Below, one piece after another: positions 2,636 through 19,900 of a stretch of DNA of 64,000 nucleotides. Every line of letters starts with the position of its first letter. Positions within the stretch are counted from its first letter, which is position 1. The notes under the pieces were generated by a model. The model saw only the letters and a list, made by a program, of their open reading frames with translations, was not told where the DNA came from and did no database searches. Position numbers and translations under genes: made by a program. The DNA is from Clostridia bacterium (GTDB lineage Bacteria > Bacillota > Clostridia > JAAYHZ01), in NCBI GenBank assembly GCA_050950825.1, contig JBMNIH010000011.1, positions 1 through 64,000 of the forward strand. Direction: 5' to 3'.

Positions 2636-2734
2636 GATTAAGTCTATATAATGGTGTAAAAAGAAGTTGAGCCAAAGCTCATGCCTCGGTTAGAATATAA
2701 ATTACTAAAAAACAAACCCGAGGAGGGATGAGCA

Positions 2735-3951
2735 ATGACTCAATTTAATATTACTATAAGCGGAGAACTTTTGCACGGATTATTTTTATCAAATGGCAAG
2801 GATGAAGCGTTTGCCAAATTATTGGAAGAAATATTTAACCAGGTTCTTTTAGCCCAGTCTTCAGAGCAATTGAAGGCCGACCCCTACGAGCGATCCGAAG
2901 AAAGAACCGCATACCGCAATGGATATCGAGATAGACAGTTAACTACTCGAGTAGGTACACTTACCCTGCGCATTCCCAGACACCGCAACGGGCAGTTCTC
3001 CACAGAGTTATTTGCCCGATATCAGCGCAGTGAACAAGCATTGGTGTTGGCAATGATGGAGATGGTAGTCAATGGTGTTTCCACTCGAAAAGTGGATTTA
3101 ATAACCGAGGAACTATGCGGGAAGAAGTTCTCAAGATCCACTGTCTCGGATCTTTGCAAGAAGTTAGATCCCATCGTGGAGGCTTTTAGAACTCGTCCTC
3201 TGCAGTGCCACTATCCCTTTCTCATAGTGGATGCCATCTTTGTAAATGTGCGGGAAAATGGTCGCGTACAATCAAGTGGTTTGTTGATAGCCACTGCAGT
3301 GAATGAGGAAGGCTATCGCGAAATCATAGGGTTTCAATTAGCCAACAGTGAATCCGAAAGCAGCTGGGGTGAATTCTTTTCCTCTCTTAAAGAAAGAGGG
3401 CTAAAGAATGTTGATTTGGTTACCTCTGACGACCATAAAGGGTTGGTCAAAGCTGTTAGAAGGCACTTTCAAGCGCGCTGGTTGGCAACGCTGTCAAACA
3501 CACTTTTCCAAGAACATTTTGGATTCATACACCGAAGGCGCTGCAACCTGAAATTAAAGAAGAGCTACGCCGGCTTTATGAGGCCGTTGACCTTGAGAGT
3601 GCTCGTAACATCAGAGATCGGATAATCCAAAATTATGAAGCCAAGGCGCCGAAAGCCACGCGCTATTCTGGACGAGGCATTTGACGATATCACTGCTGTT
3701 CTGGCCCTGCCCTTAAGGTATCGAAAACGGCTTCGTACTACAAATAGTGTGGAAAGACTCAACCAGGAAATTCGTCAGTCGTGAACGGGTTATTCGAATC
3801 TTTCCCAATGCATCATCAGCCATACGGCTTATGGGTGCTTTATTAATGGAACAGCATGAAAAGTGGCAAACAGGACACAAATATTTCAATATGCAGTTGT
3901 ATTACCAGATGCGGAAAGAGAACGATTCGAAGTCCGGTTACTGCTGCCTAA
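2735..3951 (+). pseudogene. IS256 (mutator-type) DDE transposase, frameshifted
   Basis: YRNGYRDRQLTTRVGTLTLRIPRHR, GVSTRKV, YPFLIVDA, LVTSDDHKGL. The C-terminal RTTNSVERLNQEI and RIFPN pieces lie in other frames. Stop TAA at 3949-3951. Confidence 0.85.
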
Positions 3952-3956
3952 GATCG

Positions 3957-4122
3957 CATTTATTCCACGGTCTGTTGACAACGACGCCTCTCATGGCATG
4001 TTTTCCGGCATCGGGGCCATCCCCCACAGTAACAGGGATGGGCTTCATAGAAGGTGGATGATGCCCGGCTACTCAGCCTAACATGCCATGTAACTCATTG
4101 TCAACAGCTTTCGCGGCATAAA
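3957..4122. ncRNA. 166-nt conserved nested-hairpin element (copy A), putative structured RNA or ssDNA element
   Basis: Ends CATTTATTCCACGGT...CTTTCGCGGCATAAA. Stems CTGTTGACAA/TTGTCAACAG, ATGGCATGTT/AACATGCCAT, GGCATC/GATGCC, CCATCCC/GGGATGG. Homologous to 15175-15340. Confidence 0.65.
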
Positions 4123-4192
4123 CGCTTGCGACCATAGGCTGATTGCTACATTTAAAATGCCGAGGTAATTTACACACTAATTTGACTTGACT

Positions 4193-5587
4193 TTGTTCTA
4201 GGTCAAGCTCTATTTCACCGATGCTCTTTTTATACTGACTCGGACCTATTACTATTCTGTAGCGTTCATACAAATCATCTAAAAAAGTATCAAAAGTTAT
4301 TTTTTCTTGAGGTTTTAAGGTTGAGAGAACCAAAAATTTAACCAAATCTTCGGACAAAGAAAATCTTTCATGATCTCCTCTCGCAGGTATAATGAGCTGC
4401 ATTATTTTTCCCAATCTTTTAAACATGTTTAAAGTATGATTTCTTGCATGTGTCAAATACTGAATTTCCGTATACTTCTTCGCCGAATCGGGGTTTTCTT
4501 CCAAGTAATCCTTAGTTGTCTTATTAACTGCGTTTACCAGCAGCTCATCTACTCGTCTATAACTTTCAGAAGAAATCTTTCTTACGGTTTTTCCTGCTTT
4601 TTTAGATCTCATATCAATAATCCAAGGCAGCGGCGATATGCCTAGAACTTGTTCGGATCGTCTGCACATCATCCGCATAACTTGCATAACGATTCCTTTT
4701 GCCAGTATTTCGAGCCTTGAAATGGGATGCATATCGGTATATAGGTAATTTATCAATTCGGTTATTGTAAGTTTCCCACACTCTAGATAGCCGGTAGCGG
4801 GTATAAACCCTAAGTTATTACTTCTCCATAATTCATCAAGCTCGATTCCTTGGCTCTTTATCCACGTGTCATAAATCCAGTTCGCCAGATTAGAAAAGCT
4901 TTTACTTTTAGCCGTTACAAGGTGTTTTAAAAGAGCTTCCAGTTCACCACGCTGCTCCTCAGAATTCTGTAAAGCTTGTAAGATATGCAGATAATATACC
5001 TCTCCCCCTCTAGCTAAGAAATTGTGTCTTGAGTAATCAAATTCTTTTTCTACAGCCACTGCATCATCCTGATTTATTCTAGACATACGTGTTGTTTTTT
5101 GAATCATAGCTTCACAAAATATTAATTCCGGTGCTATGGGAAGCAATGATTGGGCCGTCCAAGATCTGTTTTTTAATACTGCCGCATAACCGTACAGTAA
5201 ATCTTGGATTGCTTCAATGGTACTTTCCGCTTCGTTTTTCTCTACACCTTTTGCCGTCAGACTCTCTACTAAAACTTTTTTCATGTCCGCATATGCTCTG
5301 TCATCCACAGGGACTTTTGTATCTTTTTTAGATCGGTTGTAAAATATGAATCTTTTTAAACCCATGCGAGGCAAAACATAGTACACTAATTTCGAATCAA
5401 GATTGGTATGAAAAGCCATAGTCCCTTGTTCCTTGTCTTCATCTTTCGGCGAAACAAAGACCAGTAAAAACTCTATTAAATACTCATAAAGAGTTTGATC
5501 GGAAAAAATTCTGTCGCCAAAAAGGCGAATGGCCATATTGTTTTCTCCGTGCTTTAAATCAGCCTGCTTTGGGAAATATTCATACAT
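4193..5587 (-). CDS. DndG/SspG-like phosphorothioation-dependent restriction subunit, C-terminally truncated by IS256
   Basis: Lies directly after the DndF-like NTPase. C-terminal RFSLSEDLVKFLVLSTL...FDTFLDDLYERYRIVIG winged-helix-like motif. After LDLEQ the ORF reads into the IS256 IR (SQVKLVCK = AGTCAAGTCAAATTAGTGTGTAAA). Confidence 0.6.
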
Positions 5588-5608
5588 TCAATTCATCCTC
5601 CAAAATCT

Positions 5609-7299
5609 TTAATAGCTTGACAAAATGTAACCATCGCTATCTTCCTGCAAAACAATCGAATTCCAGCCTTGGACACTCATTACCAACATTTCTATTGTTC
5701 GATCTTCATGATTAGGGTTGCATACGGATAACATTTTCGCTTTGATGCTGTCAATTCCGTGGGAAAGCATTGGATCGATATTCGTTGGGATTGCGCCGTT
5801 TCTTATGTCATCAAAATAATTCAACAAAGGCAGTGTTATCGGCTGATCAATTTTTCTATTACCGACCGTGATGAACAGTTGTTTTTTATCTCCTTCGCCG
5901 TATTTTAAACTGCCGGTGCTTTCCGTTATCAATCGAACATCTCTGCTGGAAATTGTACAATATAAAAGCTGAACACTTTGGTCGATGCTGTCACTGCGCT
6001 TTAATGTTATCGGTATCTCTCTGTTATCTTGGGTTTTATACCCTGTGTGCATTATGGAAAAGGCCTCCATAATCAGCGCTTTATCATCGTTGTTCGGCAA
6101 TTTCCCATCTCGAAGCTCCATGTACCTGGGGAATTTATTTGAGAATATATTCTGCTGTAATAAGTAATTTTTTTCGGGGTCCGTTTCGATGTTGAATAAA
6201 ATACACATTCTCCTTACCGCATATTTCCACTCAAGTACATTTTTCGTTGTATATCGAGGATTCAAAACAGAGACAATGTTTTGAACTTTAGAATGCAGAT
6301 TCCTGTAATCTTGAAGAATAAACAAGGCTTCATCATGAATCAGGGTTTTGTGATCATATCGGTTTTGATGAATATCGGAAATCGCTTTAATGGCCAAAGC
6401 CTGTCTGTCCGGATTAATACCTTTGTATCCGAATAATGTATTGGAGAACAAGTGATTAAACAAATACCATTCGCGATGACTACCGCCATCAACATCCTCG
6501 CACTCCAAACCGGCGGTAAGAGAATATGTAATTTGGGCGATTATTTGCCTTATTGTCAGCCTCTTTCCGTGTTCTTGCTGCCAAACATAGTGATTATATA
6601 AAAATTCGGTTACTTTGTTTACGTTTTCTATGACCAGCTCTCTATTAAAATAGATGGGACAAACATCTTTCTTACTGCATTCTCTGCAATCTTCAAAAGA
6701 CTTATGGCTGATGATTTTCTTTAAATATTCGCCGGCAAAAGACGAATTATCGATACTTGCGAAATTTAGCGCTCGAATTTTATATCCCTTAATTTCTTTT
6801 ACATCTTCCGAATTAATGTCAATAACATCTAAGATATCTTTTCGACCTCTTTACCTAACACTTCCTTAAAGGTATTAATCAAAGGACCGGTATTTGCAAC
6901 AATAATTACATGCTTTGTCTTTGATTTTTCTAAACAATCTTCAAGAAGCTTTACTCTATTCTCGTCGGAAAACTCGCTAAAATCTTTTATGTAAACACAC
7001 TCGGTGCCATTCGATAATTTAACCTCGTCGTAATCCTTCAAAGCACCGTTAAGTCCGCCTAGATAGTCTAATATCTGTATAAGCAAGCTTGTTTTCCCGT
7101 CTCCTGCATGGCCGGTAATCAAAATCATGTGCGGATCTTGCTCCGTCAGCCATTTCGTAGCAACGTCGACAACAGGCCTTTTAACTAAAAGGTCTTTGTA
7201 AAATGGACTGTTTTTGCTCGCTTCGGCTATCGCGTTCTCATTTTTTGCTCCTACATTGTGCAACGTATTTAAATATTTGATAAATTCGCCATTCTTCAT
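5609..7299 (-). CDS. DndF/SspF-like P-loop NTPase; one -1 frameshift near 6840 joins ORFs 6829..7299 and 5609..6508
   Basis: Walker A ILITGHAGDGKT, YIKDFSE, IIVANTGPL. Adding one A to GAAAAGAT gives a continuous frame ...EVEKDILDV...CRECSKKDVCPIYFN...RLTIRQII... Confidence 0.65.
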
Positions 7300-7308
7300 G
7301 CTTTCACC

Positions 7309-8460
7309 TCACCAACTGTTTTCATAGATGTAATCTAAGGCTTCGTCGAGCATGCGGAAATCATCATCATCATTAAAGTAGCCTACACTAAAGCGCACGG
7401 TTCCTGCAGGAAAAGTGCCTAGAAACTTATGTGATGAAGGAGAGCAGTGCAAACCCGTTCTAACCTCAATACCCTGCTCGATTAATACTTGGCCTATATT
7501 GTCGCTGCTGTATCCGTCGAAGACACACGAAACAACACCGATAGAATCAAAGTCATTTGCCCCACCTATTATCCTAATATTATCATACTTTTTTAGTATA
7601 TTTAACAATCTGCAACGATTTTCCATGTCTTTTTCATAGATGTTTTGAATACTCGTTTTCTCTATCCATGTTAATCCTGCATGCAGCCCTGCTATGGCCA
7701 TGACATTTTGGCTTCCTACTTCATACCTTTCAGGTATCGAATCGGGCAGTTCCGGATTTGCGGAATCCACACCGGTTCCGCCATACAATAAAGGCTTTAG
7801 CTTAATATTGCCGCTGCATATAAACCCTGCAATACCAAACGTAGCATACAGAGTTTTATGACCGGCAAACACGGCAAAGTCGTAAATGCCGCTGCTTAAA
7901 TCCGTGTCTATAAGTCCTGCCGTTTGGCACATGTCAATAATATTTACGGCACCATATTGGTGAGACATGGAGCAAATACTTTCGATCGGTGCAATAACAC
8001 CGCAAACGTTGCTCGCATGATTCATAATCACAACATTCGGTTTATTCTCTGCAAATTGATATTTTATCTTATCTAAATTGTACGTGATTTTCTTTTCATC
8101 AACGGAGAGCGTGTATATGTTGAGTCGATATTTGGTTTTCAGATAATTCAGCACTCGCGTAACCGCATTATGCTCGAAAGGAGTAACATAGATATTGTAA
8201 TTATCCTCTAAATGCAGCCCCTGAAGTATTACATTGATCGCTTCCGTTGCCGTAGAAGTAAAAACAACCTTTTTCGCAGGACACCGAAAAAGTTCCAGTA
8301 TTTTTCTTCTTGCTTCTTGAACGATTTTATGAGAGGAAGTTCCCGTTCCTCTGCCGAAACTAAAGCCCGACTCTCGGTAAAATCGATCAACAAAGGTATA
8401 GACTTCTTCCGGTTTAGGAAAGGTAGTAGCTGCGTTATTGAAATAAGCAACTTTTTTCAA
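7309..8460 (-). CDS. Cysteine desulfurase (aminotransferase class V, SufS/CsdA type), in the SspA position
   Basis: YFNNAATTFPKP, FEHNAV, HASNVCG, PLP-lysine AGHK, catalytic RTGLHCSP. Sits inside the PT operon. Confidence 0.9.
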   Translation of the reverse strand: MKKVAYFNNAATTFPKPEEVYTFVDRFYRESGFSFGRGTGTSSHKIVQEARRKILELFRCPAKKVVFTSTATEAINVILQGLHLEDNYNIYVTPFEHNAVTRVLNYLKTKYRLNIYTLSVDEKKITYNLDKIKYQFAENKPNVVIMNHASNVCGVIAPIESICSMSHQYGAVNIIDMCQTAGLIDTDLSSGIYDFAVFAGHKTLYATFGIAGFICSGNIKLKPLLYGGTGVDSANPELPDSIPERYEVGSQNVMAIAGLHAGLTWIEKTSIQNIYEKDMENRCRLLNILKKYDNIRIIGGANDFDSIGVVSCVFDGYSSDNIGQVLIEQGIEVRTGLHCSPSSHKFLGTFPAGTVRFSVGYFNDDDDFRMLDEALDYIYENSW

Positions 8461-8465
8461 GTCGA

Positions 8466-11400
8466 TTATCCCCCTTTACACATCATTTCAATAAACTCCA
8501 TAAGTATTTGTCTTTTTTCCTGTTCAGAAATCGACTGTCCCATTTCATTCAAAGCGGTCGCAATTTCATTATAAAGAAGTTTCCCCCTTTGGCTTATAGC
8601 GGTTTTATCAAAGGCCTTAACAACCTCTTTTCCATCTTCTCCTACAAAATGCAGTTTATAACCGTTAAAGTCGGGCTGTGCACTCGATGAATGCTCTGCT
8701 GTCCGGTTATATTCCAAAATTGATTTTTTAATCCGCTCCAGTTCATAGTAAAACTCGGAAACGGTTTTTTCTTCCCAGTCGTCAATTCTCAAATTGATGA
8801 CTGTTCTTGCGAGTTTTTCGACAAAGGTATACTCATCATTGCCGATATCAGCCATTAATTGCAGTACCCTATGCTCGTCATTAGGGAATAAGTAACTTAA
8901 GGTAGACGGCTTCAGTTCTTCTACGAAATCTTTGATGATAGAAGTTAGGGAAGCGCTGTTATCTTGTCCGTCTTTAAACAGGTCTTTGATATCGTGAATC
9001 AAATGCTCGATCAGGTCCCTTCGGGCACTGTCGTATATGTCTTTTGCAGTTTCGATATCATTGATTATATCGAGTGTAAATTCATCATATTCGAATAGGA
9101 CAAAAATGCGGTCAAACAAGAACTCTCTGGCATTTATATTCGGACGCTTCAAACCGTTCATAAACCGGATATATTTTTGCGGTAGCTTTTCCGGCTTATT
9201 GTTCTTTCCTCTGTAGATGGTTTTGAGTTCTTTTGCGTATTTAGGCAAGCTCAAATACCAGCGGGTCATGGCCGACACGATATATGAAAAAGTATTAAAG
9301 TCTTTTTCTTTATCAATGATATAATCCGAGAAAAGTTCCTCTAAACGATTCATATAAAGAGCCTTTTCTTCGCTCCATTCCTCCATGTAGGCATAGTAGT
9401 CCTTTGGATTTTCATTAATGCTGTTTAGAAGATCCGCTGTAATTCGTACTTCCTCATCGCCGTTTTTAATAACCAAATATTTTTTTATAAAGTGGAGTAC
9501 GACTGCAATAAATATGGGGATAACTCCTTTTTTGATACCGTATCCGTATTCCGGTTTTCTCAATCGGTCGTATAATTCCTGAAAGTTCTTACCTTTATTA
9601 GAAGAGGACAAAAAGAACTCCCGAATCTCGCCTAATACCCGCGTCATATTTTCATTATCCGGCGTTAACGTAAGAACGGGCTCGTCTTCTACGTTTTTCA
9701 AAATCCCCGTCTGAATCAGAGTACTTCTCATAAACGAAACATCTTGGCTTGTTCCTGTAAGCCCTAGGTTTGGACTCAATTGATTTTCAAGTAGACCTGA
9801 AATTAACCTGCTTCTGCTGTTAATAGCAACTGTGGTTACATAGTCATTATTAATCGTTTCGTTATTGATAATAGGAGTATAGGGATACATCTCTTTACAA
9901 ATCTCAGAAAGTTTAGCGGAAATCTGCGATTTTCGTTTAATGTTCTGCTTCATTCCTTTCCAGAAGTATTCCGATTCGCCCATCTCCGGTCGAGAGTAGC
10001 TCATGATGTATCTGCCTATAACTTCTTCTAAATCTTCCATATAAAGATCATACTCTTGGTATAGAAGTTCATCTTCTTTTGCACTTTCCCTTAAGACGGA
10101 TACCGCGTTGTATTCTAATACGATTTGCTCGATATCCACATGCTTTATAGGCAATATAAACAGGATTCTGTGCTGATTGCAGCAGCCTCCGACAATGGCT
10201 TCTCGAATCTTAGCAATATCATCTTGATCGTAAGGAATGATTGCATAGATAACGCCGTCTGCTTCGATATCCTCAACATGTCTATCCCAATTTTCTATAG
10301 CGAAAAATTCAGCACTATCGATGAACGTAAAGTCAAAATATCTTGTTATCTCATTCTCATCATTGTATGCCGTAGGATACATATAATTATCATAAGAACT
10401 CTTATTCAAAACTTCCTTTACGCTTACATTGTACTTTGTTTTTTCGATAACATTTTCTATCTCTACAGTTATATCGACGCCAGTGCTCTCCTTAATCTTT
10501 AAGTAGCCGTTGCTCTTTTTTTGATATATAACGTATTCTTTTTTAATAAGATCATTGAGGGTATCTTCAATAATCCGTATATCGCCGACACTATCTATAA
10601 AGGTGTTGAAAATAATGTCTTTAACAGGCGGTAACTTCTCAAACTGCTCCACTATATAAATAAGTGAAATTGTTTTGATTATTTTTGCCGCAAGGGAATC
10701 GTTTTCGAGTTTTTGAAGCACCTTTCTCGTTGTCGTATACAATTTGTGAACATCACTGGTATACGGCTCTTTCTTTAAAAGGGGTTCGAAATAATCAAAA
10801 AGATAATCAGGAGTAAGCAGGGAGAAGCCTTCCGGTACCCTCTCCAGAAAATCCGTAAGGGTATTCTTACTGTCTGCAGATAAAAAGGTAAATAAAGTTC
10901 TTTCATTTTGCGCAACTTTTTCCGACAGCCTCGGCAGAATAAAGGTTGAAACGGGATGAAGGGGATAACACCCTTTAACCGCTATTTCAGCCGTTTTTTC
11001 ATCATCTTTATCAAGAACACCGTTTCCAATAAAGCGCTCAATCAATTGTTCGAATTTTGCTTGATGATCTCGACAAAAGTCTGACCAAAAGCCTTCCTCT
11101 TTTCGAATAACGAAGGATATGATTTCATAAATTTGGGCGTAATTGTTGTGAAGGCTCATATGCTTGAATCGGCCCGAAACGCCGCGCCATCCGTCGACTT
11201 TGTCTTTCGGAAGTTTTTTATCGATATAATTGGCAATATCCTTGTGGGAGATCAGCATCAAGTGCATTTGCTTGTCATCGCTTCGGTCGCATTTTTCGGC
11301 AAAGTCCTGCAGCAGCTTGATGTCGCTAATGGTCGTATTCGCTATACTAGACTCTAAATACTTGCTGAACTCGTCATATACGATATATACGCCACTGTAG

Positions 11401-12104
11401 CCTCTTTCAGTTAACTTTTCCGTCACCTTTTCATACAGCTCCACAATATCGTGGCCGATAAAGGGATTGAAAGTACTGCCGGAAGTCAATGCAGGATATA
11501 ATTCGACAAACTTTTCATAAGCGTTTACGTCGTATTCCTGCAGTGAAACTATAAAATCGTTTATCGGAACATTAATTTCCGACAAAAACTTTTTATAAGT
11601 ATCTTCATAGGATTCTCTCCATAGATTTATCGCATTTACGGCCGCTTCAAAATGGGTTTCGGGCATCAAGTCGGCTAAGCCTTCGTTTTTTAGGGCCGAT
11701 TGCAGCGCACTTAAAAACGATTGGCTTATACTTGTGCTGCTGCCGCTAATGATAATCGGCAGCAACTTTTTATCGCTTTTTATGTAATCGACGATAAAGT
11801 CATACAGTTCCGGCTTGTATTCATATATTTTTTCTAACAGGCTGCTAAAAAGGTAAATGTCTTTTTTAAAAAGGAGAGACATAAGAACCAGCACGATATG
11901 GGATTTTCCCTTGCCGTAAGCTCCGATCAATATTCGAGCTCTTCCTCTGTCTTGCACGGCAGTGCTGAGCATAATGTCTTCGATTACATCAATGGAAGAC
12001 AAGGTCGGTATGAAGTTTTTTATCTTGCTGTCGTTATGCAAATCATAAGCAATATTAATTGATGTTTGAAAACCTTTTTCAACCCATATTTTCTTGGTCA
12101 GCAT
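8466..12104 (-). CDS. sspC: SspC-like large ATPase of ssDNA phosphorothioation system
   Basis: FQTSINI, Walker A GAYGKGKS, Walker B VYDEFSKYLE, CYPLHP, AQNERTLFTFL. 1212 aa, downstream of DUF4007 and the PAPS-reductase-like gene. Confidence 0.8.
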   Translation of the reverse strand: MLTKKIWVEKGFQTSINIAYDLHNDSKIKNFIPTLSSIDVIEDIMLSTAVQDRGRARILIGAYGKGKSHIVLVLMSLLFKKDIYLFSSLLEKIYEYKPELYDFIVDYIKSDKKLLPIIISGSSTSISQSFLSALQSALKNEGLADLMPETHFEAAVNAINLWRESYEDTYKKFLSEINVPINDFIVSLQEYDVNAYEKFVELYPALTSGSTFNPFIGHDIVELYEKVTEKLTERGYSGVYIVYDEFSKYLESSIANTTISDIKLLQDFAEKCDRSDDKQMHLMLISHKDIANYIDKKLPKDKVDGWRGVSGRFKHMSLHNNYAQIYEIISFVIRKEEGFWSDFCRDHQAKFEQLIERFIGNGVLDKDDEKTAEIAVKGCYPLHPVSTFILPRLSEKVAQNERTLFTFLSADSKNTLTDFLERVPEGFSLLTPDYLFDYFEPLLKKEPYTSDVHKLYTTTRKVLQKLENDSLAAKIIKTISLIYIVEQFEKLPPVKDIIFNTFIDSVGDIRIIEDTLNDLIKKEYVIYQKKSNGYLKIKESTGVDITVEIENVIEKTKYNVSVKEVLNKSSYDNYMYPTAYNDENEITRYFDFTFIDSAEFFAIENWDRHVEDIEADGVIYAIIPYDQDDIAKIREAIVGGCCNQHRILFILPIKHVDIEQIVLEYNAVSVLRESAKEDELLYQEYDLYMEDLEEVIGRYIMSYSRPEMGESEYFWKGMKQNIKRKSQISAKLSEICKEMYPYTPIINNETINNDYVTTVAINSRSRLISGLLENQLSPNLGLTGTSQDVSFMRSTLIQTGILKNVEDEPVLTLTPDNENMTRVLGEIREFFLSSSNKGKNFQELYDRLRKPEYGYGIKKGVIPIFIAVVLHFIKKYLVIKNGDEEVRITADLLNSINENPKDYYAYMEEWSEEKALYMNRLEELFSDYIIDKEKDFNTFSYIVSAMTRWYLSLPKYAKELKTIYRGKNNKPEKLPQKYIRFMNGLKRPNINAREFLFDRIFVLFEYDEFTLDIINDIETAKDIYDSARRDLIEHLIHDIKDLFKDGQDNSASLTSIIKDFVEELKPSTLSYLFPNDEHRVLQLMADIGNDEYTFVEKLARTVINLRIDDWEEKTVSEFYYELERIKKSILEYNRTAEHSSSAQPDFNGYKLHFVGEDGKEVVKAFDKTAISQRGKLLYNEIATALNEMGQSISEQEKRQILMEFIEMMCKGG

Positions 12105-12141
12105 GTTGATCTCCGTTCTCTAAGGATGTGTTTTAATGGTT

Positions 12142-13028
12142 CTAATGGTTTAATCTTTTGTAGTACTCTTTTATGCACTCAATGAAATTCATCTTTTTCT
12201 CAATGCTTATAACATCCAGACCCGCCGTACGGATAACCTTGATGTAGCCCATTAATTCCAGCCTATTCAGTAAGGTTGTCAACGTAATAACATCAAGGTT
12301 TAAATTTTACCGGCATTTTTCTTGTCGTTTTGGATGGTAGAGATTTTTATAAGTCCTTCTTCCTCGTTCTTTTCCGCTTGGTCAACAATTATGGCAAGCA
12401 CAATAAGAGGATCGATACTATCCACTTTCGGCGTTTTCTTTCTGTATGTTTTCGTTCTTTTATCCACGATATCGACAAGCGAAAGCTCCCCTAACGGGCA
12501 GTCGATGTTGCTTTCGGGGTGAACCTTACCCGGATTGAGTTTTGATCTCGGTATGTAGGTATTGATAATACAATTAAAGTCATCTTCTAATGAGCGTTCG
12601 GAATAGGATTCACCATTAAGCAATATGTAAGCATTCAATTGCTTAACAAAATCATCTTTCGTAAATTCCGTCCGATTAAACTCATTAAAGAAGTAATACC
12701 ACGAAGTTGCCAAATGTTCGTTAGATGCTAGTTTATAATGCAGGAGCCATAAAGTACCCATTTCTTCCATGTACTTGTCGTTTTGATAGACAACTTGTCC
12801 GAAATCGGTAAACTCTTGGTATTTCTTACCGCTTGGGGGTTCTTTGGTCAATTCTACGGCTTGGAGCCAATATCGCAGTGATTTGACCATATTTGCTCCA
12901 ATACCTAAAACATCCATGGGATTCCCCGACCCTCCCATAAATACGGTCTTGTCTTCTTTGACGTATTTCATTCCTTTATAAAGCCAACCTTTACGAATAA
13001 AGAAAGATTCATGAGCTCTAAATTTCAT
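12142..13028 (-). CDS. sspB: SspB (DUF4007) nickase-like protein, one frameshift at ~12300
   Basis: MKFRAHESFFIRKGWLYKG, LGIGANMVKSLRYWL, TLWLLHYKL, CPLGEL. ATG 13028 overlaps the sspD stop (ATGA). Adding one base at ~12300 continues NLDVITL...IRTAGLD...RLNH* to 12142. Confidence 0.85.
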
Positions 13029-14746
13029 TCTGTCACCTTTGTCTTTAAGTATTTGTCCATCATACATCCGCCCTCTAAATATTTAGCGGTAACACACATC
13101 TTGCAGCGCTTGCATTTGAATTCGTTTATGTAATATTCGCCGCCGTAAATGCTGATTGCACCGTGTTTACAAAGGGATTCGCATTTTAAGCATTTGCGGC
13201 ATGCATTGAATTTTCTTACTTGATAGCCGATCATTCTTTGAAGATCATCGTGTTTAGCAACATTCATGGTTTTAATCTTGACCCCATAGTCGAATTCGCC
13301 TTGATTAAAAGGTTGAACCGATATAATAGGTACTTTCGTTTTGTAATCTAAAACAATCACTTCGTTTATAAGTTTTCGGCCCAATTCCTTAGAGACAATA
13401 CCAAAAGGAATCAGCAAGTTTAAAAACGAATCATCCACAGGATATTTTAGCTGATATATCTTTGCATTTTCTTCTGCAGTACAATTTGTAAACTTGATCT
13501 TTACATCTTCTGCAGCTTCGACTCCGTTGCCGCCCTGCCTTGCCTTCCACTTTCCACTATCTACATAAACCTCGGGATCCGGTTTGCCGATTCGTTTCGC
13601 AAAATCAATCAAGAAGTTCCGCCATCTTTCCGATTGTTCCGGCATGTAGATCTGTGAGAGAAATTGTGCTCTTAAATGATTGTTCGGGCAGCACCAGCAT
13701 CCCACACGGTCGTATCCGAGTCGGTAAGCATCGTTAAAGTCGATTTCTTCTCCTAAAATGTACAGCCAAATATCGATATCCTTCCAATAGAAAATCGGTG
13801 AAGCAACCTTTTGCTTTTGGATTTTAATAACTTCGGCATCGTCTTCGATGCGGTTGTATTTACTTCTACTGGCGGACTCATTTTTTCGTATACCATAGAA
13901 AGTAAGTATGTCGGTATCGCGGTAAAGACTGTTAAGCACCCGAGTAATTGGTCCTGTTTTAAACATGGAACAGCACCAGCGGAGCATTCGGGCAGGAGGA
14001 CCGATGTCTTCACAAACTTTAAAAAAGTCTTGGTCTTTATTCCTAGCCACTTTAAAAATGGCTTTCGAATTATTTTCCCGATAGCGCTCGGCATATTCGA
14101 TTGTCATTGGGAACTCTAACGTAGTATCACCGAAAATGTGGACGATACTCGGATCACTTAATGCCCGCATCGTTAAATCCGCCGTAACGGTAGAATCTTT
14201 TCCTCCGGAAAAGGAGATTACGATATTTTCAATTGGATAATCCTTTGCCGCTTCTTTAATGAAAATTGCCGCTTCGTTCGATATGTAGTGGAGTCTTTCT
14301 AAATTTGCTTTTACAAATCGATCAATGCTTTCGTTAAAAATGTCATAACTGTTGGCTTCCTTATATTTATCAAGCTCTTTCGCTATCTCATCCGCAGAAC
14401 GTTTCTTATATGAGCTAACCGGTATGGACTTAGGCTTGCCGTCGATATAAAAACGATTGTTGTACGCCCAAACGGTTTTGTCGATGAATTCAAGAGGTTT
14501 GCCTAAAAAGACCTCCAGCAGCAAACGCTCTTCAGGAAAAACGGGCCGTAAATCCGCACTCATATAAGTTGTTTCGCTTCCGCATAGGGAACATATATTA
14601 ATATCGATTCTGTCAGCCGATTTTATAATAGGAGTATTGCATTCCTTGCACCAATAGACGTATACAGGTGTGTCTTGCTCTGTGGCGGCACCACACAGTT
14701 CACAGTTTTCTTGATTCGATTCTCTGTTACAGTTTTTACACCACAA
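13025..14746 (-). CDS. sspD: SspD-like PAPS-reductase-family protein with N-terminal CxxC pairs and C-terminal ferredoxin-like domain
   Basis: PP-loop SFSGGKDS, RWCCSMFK, GIRKNES, RVGCWCCP. N-terminal CKNC/CELC/CKEC/CSLC. C-terminal CRKCLKCESLC..CKRCKMC. Likely TTG start at 14746 after GGGGGGTG. Confidence 0.8.
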   Translation of the reverse strand: MWCKNCNRESNQENCELCGAATEQDTPVYVYWCKECNTPIIKSADRIDINICSLCGSETTYMSADLRPVFPEERLLLEVFLGKPLEFIDKTVWAYNNRFYIDGKPKSIPVSSYKKRSADEIAKELDKYKEANSYDIFNESIDRFVKANLERLHYISNEAAIFIKEAAKDYPIENIVISFSGGKDSTVTADLTMRALSDPSIVHIFGDTTLEFPMTIEYAERYRENNSKAIFKVARNKDQDFFKVCEDIGPPARMLRWCCSMFKTGPITRVLNSLYRDTDILTFYGIRKNESASRSKYNRIEDDAEVIKIQKQKVASPIFYWKDIDIWLYILGEEIDFNDAYRLGYDRVGCWCCPNNHLRAQFLSQIYMPEQSERWRNFLIDFAKRIGKPDPEVYVDSGKWKARQGGNGVEAAEDVKIKFTNCTAEENAKIYQLKYPVDDSFLNLLIPFGIVSKELGRKLINEVIVLDYKTKVPIISVQPFNQGEFDYGVKIKTMNVAKHDDLQRMIGYQVRKFNACRKCLKCESLCKHGAISIYGGEYYINEFKCKRCKMCVTAKYLEGGCMMDKYLKTKVTE

Positions 14747-15174
14747 ATCAAACACCCCCCACATCCTATTGTAGCATAAGGATCCGCAATAACATAAAAG
14801 TAAAACTATGAAACGCAAAAAGAATATTATGCCATTCTTTTTGCTAGTGATTTTTTATTCAGCAGTCTGACTACACAGTAAATCCATTAACGGTGCTGTG
14901 TTAAATCGCTATTTTTTTGGCGAGTTTTGTTGAAAAATACACAAACAGTCTAATATATTTTGGACTTTTAGTAAAGTAAGATATCAGAGCTGATAGCGTC
15001 AATATACATTCGGAAATAAAAAGAGAGAGTTCACCCTTATGATAAGATTAAATCTTGTCTGTATCATATATCATTTCCATCAATTTTTCCACATTTGTTT
15101 TTTTAATTGATTATTACACATCACCCCTATTCAAGAATTCATGAAGACAATAGCAAATGCACAAGTAAAGTACT

Positions 15175-15340
15175 CATTTATTCCACGGTTCGCTTTACGA
15201 CGAGCCTCTGCCGGCATGTTTAGTGGCCTCTGCGGCATCTTCCTACAGGGTGAAGCCGGATACGGCTTTGTGTGTTTGATGCCAGGCAGACAAGCCTAAC
15301 ATGCCGTCTACTCATCGTAAAGCGACTTTCGCGGCATAAA
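15175..15340. ncRNA. 166-nt conserved nested-hairpin element (copy B)
   Basis: Same 15-nt termini as copy A. Stems TCGCTTTACGA/TCGTAAAGCGA, GGCATGTT/AACATGCC, GGCATC/GATGCC, AAGCCG/CGGCTT. Confidence 0.65.
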
Positions 15341-15383
15341 GCCTACCGTCACACGGTTACAAAGTCATAGCGGTTCAAGCTGC

Positions 15384-16868
15384 TTATGCGTCCCAAGCCA
15401 GTGTGGTCATATTCTTTAGCCACTTCATACTGCTCCTTTCCAAACCATGTATGTGACGTCTGGTATCTTCCGCATACGTCCATTTTGAATGTCTTCTTCT
15501 CAGATCTCTTATCAATTCTTCTTGTGCTTCACGCCTTTCCTTTTGCTTTTTTCGTTGTTTTTGATATTTTAGCAAGTCAAGAATCTTACCGCCGTTTCTT
15601 TTGTACGCTCTGAGCCTTGCCATGCGGTCGCAACCCAATTCGCTCCATCCCATTGGTCTGCTGCTCATTCTTGCCGACAATACATGGCTTATTTGCCCTT
15701 CTATGCAATATGTCCAGCCGCTTGTTTCTTCCACTCGGGTTTTTATCCCTTGCCAATGATTTAGAAAATATCTTAACGCATCTTCCACTTCTTGCTTCTT
15801 GTTTTCACTTTCCGTAACCTTCAGGATCTGCTCATAGATATTCTTCAATTCCTTTTTGTCCAAACGATTCAAGGCTCCCCAAATCCAGTCTTTCACCTCG
15901 TCCGCGCTATCGTAAAGATGCGCCACTGACCTGTTTATATATTTCATCATATGGTATTTATCAAGGACATATTTGCTGTTCTCCAAATATTCGCATCCTT
16001 TTTTTATCCACGAAGCTCCGTCTCCGACTACGTATATTCTCTCAAGATAGTCCGTATCGTATGTTTTTTCTATGTATTCGGCAACCTCCATCCAAAGCTT
16101 TTCGTTGCCTTTGCCACCCTCGTAAATACCGCAAAAGTATTTTTTTCCGATCAGCTTATATCTGGGATTCTTGGATGCTTCCCCCGATTCATTGATAATA
16201 TCCTCGAATACACAAACAAGCTTAGGCATCAGGGTATTAATCTTATGGCCCCTCGCATCTCGCTTCAAATCGCCCTTTTCATTCCAAAACTGTGCCGCCA
16301 CATGATCTTCATCGGCTATGACATGAAGCCTTTTTATCTTCTTCTTTCCTTCCGGTTCCGGCATCGGCATGTCCGCCTCAATCTCATGTACCAGATCCAT
16401 CACGGCTTGTTTGCTAATGCCTTCTTCCGCTTTTATGCTTGCATTCTCTCCGCCTTTGCGGTAACTGCTGTCTATACTTTCTTCCAAGGCTCTCGCAGCT
16501 GCGCCTAGCGTTACCTTCTGGTGCGGTTCAAATCCGAGCACCTGATCCAAAAGATATACATACTCACCCGTTCCTTTCGCACAATATCCGGTTCGGCAGA
16601 ATTCAACCTTACCCATGACATCTACGATGGTTTTCTTTTTGTTCCTGTGCTCGACATTCCAATACTTTTTTCTCACGCTGCTTTCTCGTATATCGTTATC
16701 AGCTTTCTCGTACAAATCCGCTATAAGGCTGACCGCTAACGTTGACGTAACTTTATTAACGAGTGCAGTCAAATCATCGGCATCTTTTTTACCTGCCAGA
16801 ATATCACCCATCATTTTTTCAATTTCGACTAACCCATTTTCAATAAAATGTAGTATACTTTTATACAT
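15384..16868 (-). CDS. ISLre2 family transposase (UPF0236)
   Basis: LHVIADEDHV, GDGASWIK, LDKYH, IEGQISHVLSARMSSRPMGWS. ATG at 16868 after AGGAAGGTG. Confidence 0.85.
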   Translation of the reverse strand: MYKSILHFIENGLVEIEKMMGDILAGKKDADDLTALVNKVTSTLAVSLIADLYEKADNDIRESSVRKKYWNVEHRNKKKTIVDVMGKVEFCRTGYCAKGTGEYVYLLDQVLGFEPHQKVTLGAAARALEESIDSSYRKGGENASIKAEEGISKQAVMDLVHEIEADMPMPEPEGKKKIKRLHVIADEDHVAAQFWNEKGDLKRDARGHKINTLMPKLVCVFEDIINESGEASKNPRYKLIGKKYFCGIYEGGKGNEKLWMEVAEYIEKTYDTDYLERIYVVGDGASWIKKGCEYLENSKYVLDKYHMMKYINRSVAHLYDSADEVKDWIWGALNRLDKKELKNIYEQILKVTESENKKQEVEDALRYFLNHWQGIKTRVEETSGWTYCIEGQISHVLSARMSSRPMGWSELGCDRMARLRAYKRNGGKILDLLKYQKQRKKQKERREAQEELIRDLRRRHSKWTYAEDTRRHIHGLERSSMKWLKNMTTLAWDA

Positions 16869-16977
16869 AGAGGACACCTTCCTTTGTGATTTTTTGTATG
16901 GAAATTTAATCATATCACAATCGGGGTCCTCTTTCTATTTGTTATATTCTTCCATTGATTATTATCCGAAACTTACT

Positions 16978-19900
16978 TTACGCTAATATATGATAGTGCC
17001 CCTTAGGTGTCCCCATACTATTCATTTCATGACTGCCAAATCGGATACTTCTTGTTCCATCTGCAGAAAAAATTCTATTTGGATCTACTTGACCAGTTCT
17101 TGGATTAATATTAGTCTGGTTTGGTCCTAAGTAATCATCCCAGCTTTTAATTACATCACTTGATTTGATAGCATTTGGTGCTTTTACTTCTGGTGTATTG
17201 ATAACTTTTGTATTAGCACTTGGAGTCTTAGGCGTTCCCTTAACCTTTCTCAAAAGTGAACTTAATCCCGTTGAAACTCCTGCGGAGACTCCTCCGCTGA
17301 CAGCAGAAAACCCTACGCTTATCCAGTCAACATCGCCTTTTGCTATCGCCTGCTCGGCTATGCTTGCTGTCGCACTGGATGCCGCACCGAGTGCCGTGTT
17401 ACCTGCAATTTGTGCAATCAACGAACCACCCATCGTAAAGCCTGCCGTTGCTCCGCCTATTGCTCCCGAAACGGCAGCGCCTACATATTCTCTCCAGCCT
17501 TTGTTGATTTGTCTGTCATCCAAATAATCTCTTGCTAAAGTTATGGTTGCATTGAAAATGGCTCCTAATCCTGCACCGAGTCCTGCTGCCACCCAGTTTA
17601 TTGCTTCTCCGTCAGGATCGTTGTACATGACCGGGTTATTATGCGCGTACGTATATAAATTCAAGCTTAGCGGATCTTTCGGATCTCCCCAATAACTGTC
17701 CTCGGTTATAAATCTTCCTATTGCAGGATTGTAATATCGCGCTCTCAGATAAACAGTGCCCGTTTCCTTGTCAAAGTACTCTCCACAGTAACGGAACGGA
17801 TTGGTATCCGTGATGTCGGGGTTTGTTTCGTTACCGAATGCATCGTAATCATACCTTTTCGTTATGATACCCGTTGCATCGGTCAACGCCTTCACATCAC
17901 CGTGGACGTTGAACAAGTAATATTGTCTTGTCCCTGTTTCCTCCACGGCAATCAAGTTGACCCCTTGTATATATTTTACACAGGACCCGTCGGACAAATC
18001 AAGAACGATATCGGATCCGTCCCATATGTGTTCGGTAATGACTCCGTTTACATTTTTACTCTTTCTTAAACCGTTGTAATGATAAACATAAGAAGCATCG
18101 ACTTGCGAAGTTTGAACTGATATAAGTCTGTTTAAACCGTCGTACCGGTAGAATGTCATAAGCCCCAAAACGTCTTCTTCCAAAAAGACGATATCTACGG
18201 AGCCCGTTACATCCGGGTCGTACGGCTTGATCCCGCTCTTGAACGTCGCGACAAGATTCCCGTTGCGGTCATATTCGTATACGGTTTCATGTATCACCGA
18301 GTTCAACGTAACGGATTCTCTTATCAACCGATTGCTCGGATCGTATTCGTATGTCGTGACGGTTCCGAGGTGATCGGTTTTACTTTCCCGGTTGTTACAG
18401 TCGTCATAGGTATATATGTATCCCGAAACCGGCGATCCGCCGCCGGAATGGGTTTCGCTTATTAATCTGCCGATATCATCATATACGTATTCGACAATTT
18501 TACCCGCCATGACTTCCGTCTTTCGGATTTGATTGCCGTCCAGCGAATAATCATAACGGTAATCTTCCAAAACGGTTTCTCCCGCTTTATTCACCAATCT
18601 TACGGGTACGTTTGCCAAGTTGTATTCGTATTCGGTTACATTCCCGTTGGCGTATTCCAACGAAGCTCGGTTTCCGTTTGCATCGTATCCGTAGATCGCC
18701 GTTACGATACCGTTATCTTTGACGACCGACAGCCTGTTCATTCCGTCGTATTCGTATCCCGCATCGTATAGAACCGTACCGTCGACCGTAACGACACACC
18801 CCGTCTTGTTGGAAGCGACATCGTATGTATAAGTTTTGACGACGCCTTCCGCGTTTTGTTCGGTCATCAATCTTCCGGCTCCGTCATACGTGTAAACGAT
18901 GTATTCCCCTTGCCCCGTGACGGTTTTCAATTGTCCCGTGGAAGTATATGAATACTCGTAGGACAGATTTTTATCGGCATCTTCGAGGTTGACCATAACC
19001 TCGGTAAGCTTGTTTCCGAGAGCGTCGTATGTATAGGCGGTTACGGTACCGTTTCTGTCCGTCACGGATACGAGGTTTCCGTTGTAATCGTATTCATACG
19101 TCGTTGCGTTGCCGGAAGGATCCACGGTCCGAATCATACGGTTAAACCTGTCGTATTCGTATTTCGTCACGGAAAATTCCGTATCCGGTCCGGTCGCATT
19201 GTCGGGGTCCGTTATCGTCAGCGGCGAAGACAATCCGGTGAACATTCGTATTTTGTTACCGACCGCGTCATAGCAGTATTGCGTATGCATTACGCTTTGA
19301 CCCTCGTCATACAAAGACACGAGAACAAGTCTTCCGTTTGAATCGTATCCGTAATCGACTCTGCTAAAGCTTTCGTTTTCTTCCGGGACATTGTTCGACG
19401 TCAAGAGCGTAACGACATTTCCGTTCAAATCATATTCGTAAATCTTTTCGGAATAGGTTATACTGCCGTCGCCGTTCAAAGAAAACGGTATGCGTTCTCT
19501 CAGCAATCTTCCCGCATGGTCGTATTCGAATATCGTCGAGTAAGACACCGGGGAATTGTTTGCCTTGTAATCGGTGATTTTGATCTTTCTTCCTAATTCG
19601 TCGTATTCGACGCTTGTATAATTGCCTTCGATATTGTATTCTCTTACCGCTCGGTTCGCATAATCGTACTCGTACTTTGAGGTGTACGGCTCGGTTCTTC
19701 CTTCCGCTTTATGTCTTGCGGTTACCACTCGAACAAGGTTGCCCGAATAATCATAATAGTAGTCGTTCAGATATTCCGTTCCGTTCAGTATGTATCCGTC
19801 CTTGGCTTTTTGTCCGTGGGGATCGTAATATTCCACCGTCGTTATATCCTGAGCATGAGAATCTCCCGGAACGGTTTTGGAAACTCTTGCGTATGCTCCG

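Follow-up and report, generated by a model that had tools for sequence, protein, structure and literature searches.

Hairpins of the ssoA/palA single-strand origin class as probable passengers of insertion sequences in Clostridia

Two 166-nucleotide hairpins lie in a 64,000-nucleotide stretch of Clostridia bacterium DNA (GenBank assembly GCA_050950825.1, contig JBMNIH010000011.1, positions 1 to 64,000; hereafter, the window), each inside an insertion sequence (IS) of a different family. Sequence comparison gives good support to our conclusion that the two belong to the ssoA/palA class of single-strand origins. Moreover, we consider it probable that origins of this class travel as passengers of ISs, still prime synthesis of a second DNA strand there, and are kept by the ISs on that account. 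Work on ssoA origins goes back decades; the IS setting is the unusual part. Literature searches returned no report of a single-strand origin inside an insertion sequence, and PMC12016507, which sets IS5 inverted repeats beside a plasmid single-strand origin, concerns a different matter.

The hairpins, here called copies A and B (Table 1), were singled out in an original prediction made from the window alone, and re-extraction confirmed its description of them. Each is 166 nt long, both begin with CATTTATTCCACGGT and end with CTTTCGCGGCATAAA (15 nt each), and the internal blocks that it listed are present. The copies are 70.5% identical over 173 alignment columns. As single strands, each folds into one long hairpin ending in a three-way junction, with an energy of -63.0 kcal/mol for copy A (z -4.5) and -72.1 kcal/mol for copy B (z -6.4), and in neither case was any of 200 shuffled sequences as stable. 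The second stem had been said to differ in sequence while keeping its pairing, and indeed, double changes were found at 9 of 50 consensus pairs in seven sequences. The location of both hairpins between transposase stop and IS end, in opposite orientations relative to their transposases, also held. Copy A starts 5 nt past the TAA (3949-3951) of a Mutator/IS256-type transposase gene and ends 70 nt short of the IS end at 4192, and copy B is separated by 43 nt from the stop of a minus-strand UPF0236 transposase gene and by 184 nt from the IS end at 14991. The conserved module is a little longer than 166 nt, consisting of CG, the 166 nt, and CGCT, and contigs assembled from the community have loose ends at 3954/3955 and 4126/4127 that match the module boundaries of copy A. 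In genomes other than the window's, the hairpin extends into a variable complementary outer stem. A small open reading frame (ORF) noticed by eye inside the element, from the ATG in GGCATGTTT to the TAA in GCCTAA, was dropped because single-base insertions and deletions distinguish the element copies.

The class of the hairpins is indicated by their ends. The reverse complement of the 3' end of the element reads TTTATGCCGCGAAAG, 13 of the 15 bases of which match TTTATGCCGAGAAAA, the recombination site B (RSB) of the pT181-family plasmid pSSTET1 as given in PMC6395029; PMC4598088 gives the RSB of pSELNU1 as TTATGCCGAGAAAATTT. The identical 15-nt ends are therefore RSB and its complement. RSB is described, in PMC8860593 and PMC5703833, as the loop-distal part of the stem that is required for binding of RNA polymerase, and TTTATGCCGCGAAAG has that position, as it sits in the outermost stem at the loop-distal base of the hairpin and pairs with CATTTATTCCACGG. 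The length of 166 nt agrees with the ~160 nt stated for ssoA in PMC5703833, where the origin is a large structure of the displaced single strand that is primed by RNA polymerase. In these papers, ssoA contains promoter-like sequences and is active in a single orientation, and a hexamer named conserved sequence 6 (CS-6), where the primer ends, is "usually" present (PMC8860593).

Homology extends beyond the ends. We scanned plasmids, with filters off, with a covariance model (R1) whose input was seven of the element copies in the window's genome and no plasmid sequence. On pUSA02, of the pT181 family, the sole full-length match (2851-3008; 31.9 bits, E 9e-9; next best, 6.9 bits) coincides with the place where RSB and CS-6 have been reported in pSSTET1, a near-identical plasmid. 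One full-length match each was found on pC194 (2049-2206; 35.8 bits) and on pE194 (641-796; 28.6 bits), the latter with the ends CATTTATTCCAATTT and TTTTCTCGGCATAAA. All three matches end on the RSB of the plasmid, and internal blocks align besides the ends. On pUB110, which carries ssoU, an origin of a different type, R1 had no match at E<=0.1. The original prediction had taken the element for a member of an unknown family, and that claim falls with the homology to ssoA/palA. The search of Rfam that it proposed was negative, both over the whole window at gathering score and for the element at six loci with a threshold of E<=10. Rfam could not have revealed the identity because it has no model for the element.

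The interior of the hairpin is conserved as structure and as short motifs. When 97 distinct sequences were aligned to the model, pairs of the second and third helices (P2 and P3) took three to four Watson-Crick types each; a first attempt with MAFFT and RNAalifold on 78 sequences recovered the outer stems alone. On the RSB strand, a TTGACA-like hexamer lies in the second helix in 91 of 103 distinct copies and TAGGCT occurs in 77 of 103. The spacing between them is 16 to 18 nt in 66 of the 72 copies with both. We suggest that the two hexamers are internal promoter-like boxes of the folded origin.

Outside the window, the element keeps company that fits an origin of second-strand synthesis. R1 found it in 14 of 100 further genomes from the class to which the window's genome belongs and in 14 of 150 others sampled across the phylum, with one to four matches per genome, some being the two strands of one place. 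A pattern requiring the exact ends found at least 112 stretches in a species-level genome collection, and we read 80 of these loci, nearly all from Clostridia or other Bacillota. In 20 of the 80, the element lies 9 to 20 nt past the gene of a large serine recombinase, always in the same orientation, and it is in these loci that the hairpin extends into the outer stem. The ORF directly upstream of the recombinase was a rolling-circle Rep (PF23343) in all 10 cases tested, above the curated cut-off, and PF23343 was assigned to 11 of the 101 ORFs of the 20 loci. With Rep upstream of the recombinase and the element after it, these loci look like integrative rolling-circle elements in the order Rep, recombinase, origin. 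At another locus (L071), a Mob_Pre relaxase gene precedes the element, a layout shared with pUSA02, in which 9 nt separate the end of mobV from RSB. Rep and relaxase genes accompany the element in relatives, and the carriers in the window itself are ISs. The idea that the element acts at the level of single-stranded DNA (ssDNA), in the world of HUH nucleases and rolling circles, is supported.

We note some further features of this distribution. The unit of Rep, serine recombinase, and origin recurs in metagenome-assembled genomes of Christensenellaceae-like and other Clostridia (L059 to L138; e.g., L086:707-3427). A few exact-ends elements are on short contigs in non-Bacillota bins, namely Bacteroidales (L089 and L103), Treponemataceae (L096), and Sumerlaeota (L137), and either horizontal transfer of the carrier IS or mis-binning would account for them. 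One Caldicoprobacterales contig (L090) has two copies, at 4435-4583 and 7787-7961, 3.2 kb apart.

The element is bound to ISs throughout the window's genome (3.55 Mb, 11 contigs), where all 29 copies lie within six ISs of three families. In each of the six classes, it starts 5 to 43 nt past the transposase stop, and in the four of six with a delimitable repeat unit, it ends 70 to 184 nt before the IS end. The element is on the transposase strand in the IS256-type ISs and on the opposite strand in the rve-type and UPF0236 ISs. Carriers are more varied among the 80 loci, where IS256 transposases precede the element in 12 loci in one orientation and in 2 in the other, and UPF0236 and rve-type transposases, IstB/IS21, HTH_38 (IS30-like), and an unclassified 475-amino-acid (aa) DDE protein also precede it. 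In relatives of the same class, IS110 and DDE_3 (IS630-like) transposases do so as well. The proposal of a structure-selected passenger module in the 3' noncoding part of unrelated ISs is upheld by this range.

Retention of the module could be followed in IS256-type ISs. In one clade, all 13 ISs (77 to 100% transposase identity) have the element 3 to 21 nt past the stop, and the core between the shared ends is of two types. The transposase of one member (L125) is 89 to 90% identical to those of carriers of the type-1 core while its origin is just 65 to 67% identical, which points to a core swap. IS-borne and recombinase-linked copies have the same conserved blocks. Three IS256 relatives of 62 to 64% identity from one genome (G061) differ in what stands between the stop and the right inverted repeat. 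One (L205, contig C86) has an empty slot, with the stop codon, ~14 nt, and then the conserved inverted repeat, and the others (L204, contig C52; L206, contig C112) have different ~150-nt hairpin modules, of which that of L204 has a z of -7.3 and that of L206 folds weakly. An ISLre2 copy at C2:187983-189581, considered as another empty site, is merely truncated.

How an IS might use such an origin can be outlined from the plasmids. By published accounts of the class, an ssoA-type origin returns ssDNA to duplex, be it that of a plasmid in rolling-circle replication or a strand transferred by conjugation. On ssDNA, the hairpin forms a duplex-like region, RSB and its complement together with the internal promoter-like boxes recruit the host RNA polymerase, and the polymerase makes a short primer that DNA polymerases extend. 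Here the origin occupies, as a passenger, the space from the transposase stop to the right inverted repeat, and it has been amplified with its ISs to 29 copies. We propose that IS-borne copies may prime a second strand whenever the IS or its carrier is single-stranded, as in rolling-circle replication, on conjugative entry, or possibly on the strand displaced in copy-out transposition. We infer that these copies still function because their conserved blocks are intact and because they are retained with compensatory changes. The benefit might be (a) priming when a plasmid, integrative element, or transferred strand that carries the IS is single-stranded or (b) priming on the displaced single IS strand in copy-out, or (c) there might be no benefit to the IS. 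In copy-out as described in PMC7780238, replication converts a figure-eight into a double-stranded circle and either IS end may be the donor, and therefore the orientation of a passenger origin would not be constrained.

Several observations weigh against this explanation as a whole. PMC7780238 documents no single-stranded IS circle, and no ssDNA stage is documented for these ISs. TAGGCT fits at just three of six positions, and a promoter scanner accordingly called neither window copy as holding a sigma-70-type site. Of 103 distinct copies, 4 have an exact CS-6 (TAGCGT/A) on the RSB strand and 3 on the opposite strand, and it is absent from both window copies. Wobble pairs, at 156 G.U against 116 A.C, do not decide the active strand. 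The orientation of the element relative to the transposase varies among ISs, and the RSB strand lies on the G-rich strand in 14 of 29 copies, so that there is no chromosomal orientation bias. A blastn search in "distant" mode with copy A against 72,556 plasmids found no match. Finally, the original prediction advised looking for IS256 and ISLre2 relatives without the element, and such relatives exist, since the third UPF0236 IS of the window's genome lacks the module and 24 of 27 more distant IS256-homologue loci had no R1 match.

A bolder form of the proposal is that ISs of replicative families (copy-out/paste-in and related) in Clostridia deliberately carry a plasmid-type origin, because their transposition, or their establishment on entry by conjugation or transformation, would pass through a single-stranded IS form whose second strand RNA polymerase must prime, and that the noncoding stretch from transposase gene to right inverted repeat is a dedicated "origin slot" for interchangeable hairpins. 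The slot would be represented by the two ssoA core types seen here and by the other hairpins of relatives. We regard this form as doubtful.

An unlikely rival reading is that the hairpins derive from ssoA and are functionless relics in ISs, gained by recombination with rolling-circle replicons at RSB and passively copied. RSB is defined as a recombination site of plasmids, and single-strand origin cassettes are shuffled among plasmids, according to PMC5703833. The differing cores of close IS256-type ISs with the same ends, as in L125, the lack of a chromosomal orientation bias, and the many IS relatives without the module would also suit a relic. Passive copying, however, sits poorly with a module that keeps the same place and undergoes compensatory changes across the IS256 clade down to 77% protein identity, and IS-borne copies retain all conserved blocks. 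Moreover, the relatives of 62 to 64% identity hold other hairpin modules in the same place, which suggests that the slot is selected for such cargo. We favor IS-borne origins that continue to prime.

The leading idea of the original prediction was a mobile hairpin that targets the 3' regions of ISs, that is, a nonautonomous element like a miniature inverted-repeat transposable element (MITE) inserting preferentially into IS 3' ends. Bacterial MITEs and structured repeats such as Correia, RUP, bcr1, and EFAR are multicopy elements of ~100 to 170 bp with imperfect terminal inverted repeats and stable predicted folds, and they are dispersed intergenically with target duplications. The present element resembles them in that its boundaries are sharp and identical in many contexts, including the loose ends of the community contigs, that its ends form an imperfect inverted repeat, and that all 29 genome copies are inside ISs. 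Against this stands the absence of target-site duplications in six contexts (left flanks, ..CG, TG, and CT; right flanks, CGCT, AGCT, and GCCT) and of any exact end motif outside the 29 copies in the window's genome, where there was thus no solo copy and no unpaired end. Left-end matches with one mismatch number 28 and are chance-like except for one repeated IS. The sharp ends are RSB and its complement, functionally conserved in plasmids too; elsewhere the hairpin continues into the variable outer stem; and no transposase with matching ends was seen. Set beside those repeats by description, the element lacks duplications and solo copies here and is a replication-origin homologue. We reject membership in the MITEs for want of duplications, solo copies, and unpaired ends, and we give insertion of a mobile hairpin very little credence. 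The repeated IS among these near-matches, of ~1.3 to 1.4 kb and in three copies, has both end motifs swapped upstream of the transposase start (C2:465284-465345; also C2:530297 and C8:123378), in the order of a TTTGCGGCATAAA-like motif, 33 nt with a small GC hairpin, and a CATTTATTCCACAG-like motif. The arrangement might be either what is left of an origin or an RSB hairpin reduced to its minimum.

A structured RNA, be it a 3' untranslated region stabilizer, a terminator or insulator, an antisense transposase regulator, or a passenger noncoding RNA, is equally improbable: the element does begin 3 to 43 nt past stop codons, is very stable, and in copy B has an apical hairpin called as terminator-like (15250-15271), yet it can be sense or antisense to the gene upstream (~31 and ~13 cases, respectively, at gaps of <=34 nt in the sampled loci), it has no Rfam match even at E<=10, no U-tract follows its main stem, its homologue ssoA acts as DNA, and it also adjoins Rep and relaxase genes. 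The original prediction was right that it is not a simple terminator. Contigs from RNA libraries cover the IS and element, and as these are assembled contigs alone, they do not demonstrate transcription. Contig joints that skip the hairpin interior have sides of 18 to 25 letters and possibly reflect other variants or repeats.

Table 1. Origin copies, their motifs, and their carriers. The minus strand given for origin copies is the strand on which RSB reads as published and makes no claim on the active strand.
Feature	Position in the window	Strand	Basis or remarks
ssoA/palA-type single-strand origin, copy A (type-1 core)	3957..4122; module with flanks, 3955-4126	-	Homology, fold
RSB-like motif, copy A	4108..4122; partner arm, 3957-3971	-	Reads TTTATGCCGCGAAAG, 13/15 to published RSB
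Candidate -35/-10-like pair, copy A	4075..4104: TTGACA (4104-4099), 18-nt spacer, TAGGCT (4080-4075)	-	Inferred
ssoA/palA-type single-strand origin, copy B	15175..15340; RSB-like motif, 15326-15340	-	Homology, fold
Promoter-like boxes (putative), copy B	TTTACG (15321-15316), 17-nt spacer, TAGGCT (15298-15293)	- (RSB strand)	
IS256-family IS with copy A	2636..4192	+	1557 bp; ~6 copies in genome
UPF0236 (ISLre2-type) IS with copy B	14991..16987	-	1997 bp; transposase, 15384-16913; 13 copies of its origin module in genome
Flank classes, three IS256-type ISs			6, 1, and 3 copies
Flank class, IS with rve-type two-ORF transposase (IS3-like)			5 copies
Flank classes, two UPF0236 ISs			13 and 1 copies

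The carriers and their surroundings in the window have features of their own. The transposase frame of the IS256-family IS (2735-3951) is broken, and community contigs from four runs are each one base shorter than the window at 3474, 3524, 3661, 3777, 3938, 3985, and 4072. In view of these seven one-base differences, the window copy is either a decayed pseudogene or a carrier of single-base assembly errors. A 504-aa ORF on the minus strand (4073-5587) extends 120 nt into this IS, which therefore appears to have cut the 3' end of the ORF. The other carrier belongs to UPF0236, the family named ISLre2 in the original prediction, and begins 173 nt past a gene group consisting of DUF4007 (12300-13067) and a PAPS-reductase-domain protein (13025-14818), which adjoin very large ORFs (8466-12104, 1212 aa). 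The group resembles a defence island of the DNA phosphorothioation type. At three places in the window's genome (C2:38907, C6:115336/115337, and C8:56482/56511), a UPF0236 IS lies inside or against an IS256-type IS, and at C2:38907 it breaks the final bases of the origin module of the latter. It is possible that one of the two ISs prefers the other as its target.

Why IS-borne origins would matter is twofold. If they are active, a replication function is added to elements thought to consist of a transposase only, and in Clostridia of the gut and of digesters, ISs would spread single-strand origins across chromosomes, conjugative elements, and plasmids, and establishment of incoming ssDNA could be affected. 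The interest would rise sharply if the origins prime in copy-out itself. Moreover, ssoA-type origins have no Rfam or Pfam-like model, and the covariance model, which finds 29 in one genome, can annotate a recurrent "mystery hairpin" and flag rolling-circle integrative elements.

Hairpins that serve as promoters on ssDNA are found in other settings. Frpo of F, the ssi sites of conjugative plasmids, and the minus-strand origin of filamentous phages are ssDNA hairpins that mimic a duplex promoter for RNA polymerase. These are Proteobacterial and phage systems, likened here without sequence relation, and some drive gene expression beyond priming. Tn916 is among the conjugative elements considered for comparison. 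A conjugative element with a described single-strand origin is, in PMC4595007, likewise an integrated mobile element that needs the origin after ssDNA transfer or rolling-circle replication; origins of that kind are in large elements rather than ISs, and the likeness is one of description. The closest relatives are the ssoA/palA origins of the pT181, pC194, and pE194 families. They share with the present element a size of ~160 nt, a long imperfect hairpin whose base is formed by RSB, alike in 13 of 15 bases, and its complement, common internal blocks, direct matches to the covariance model, and, in one relative as in pUSA02, a site just past a MobV relaxase gene. In the present element, however, CS-6 is not conserved, the sequences form a clostridial subfamily with two core types, and activity is read from sequence only. 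Ultimately, the known ssoA/palA origins are on small plasmids, whereas those described here are in chromosomes, inside ISs and inside integrative elements with Rep and a serine recombinase.

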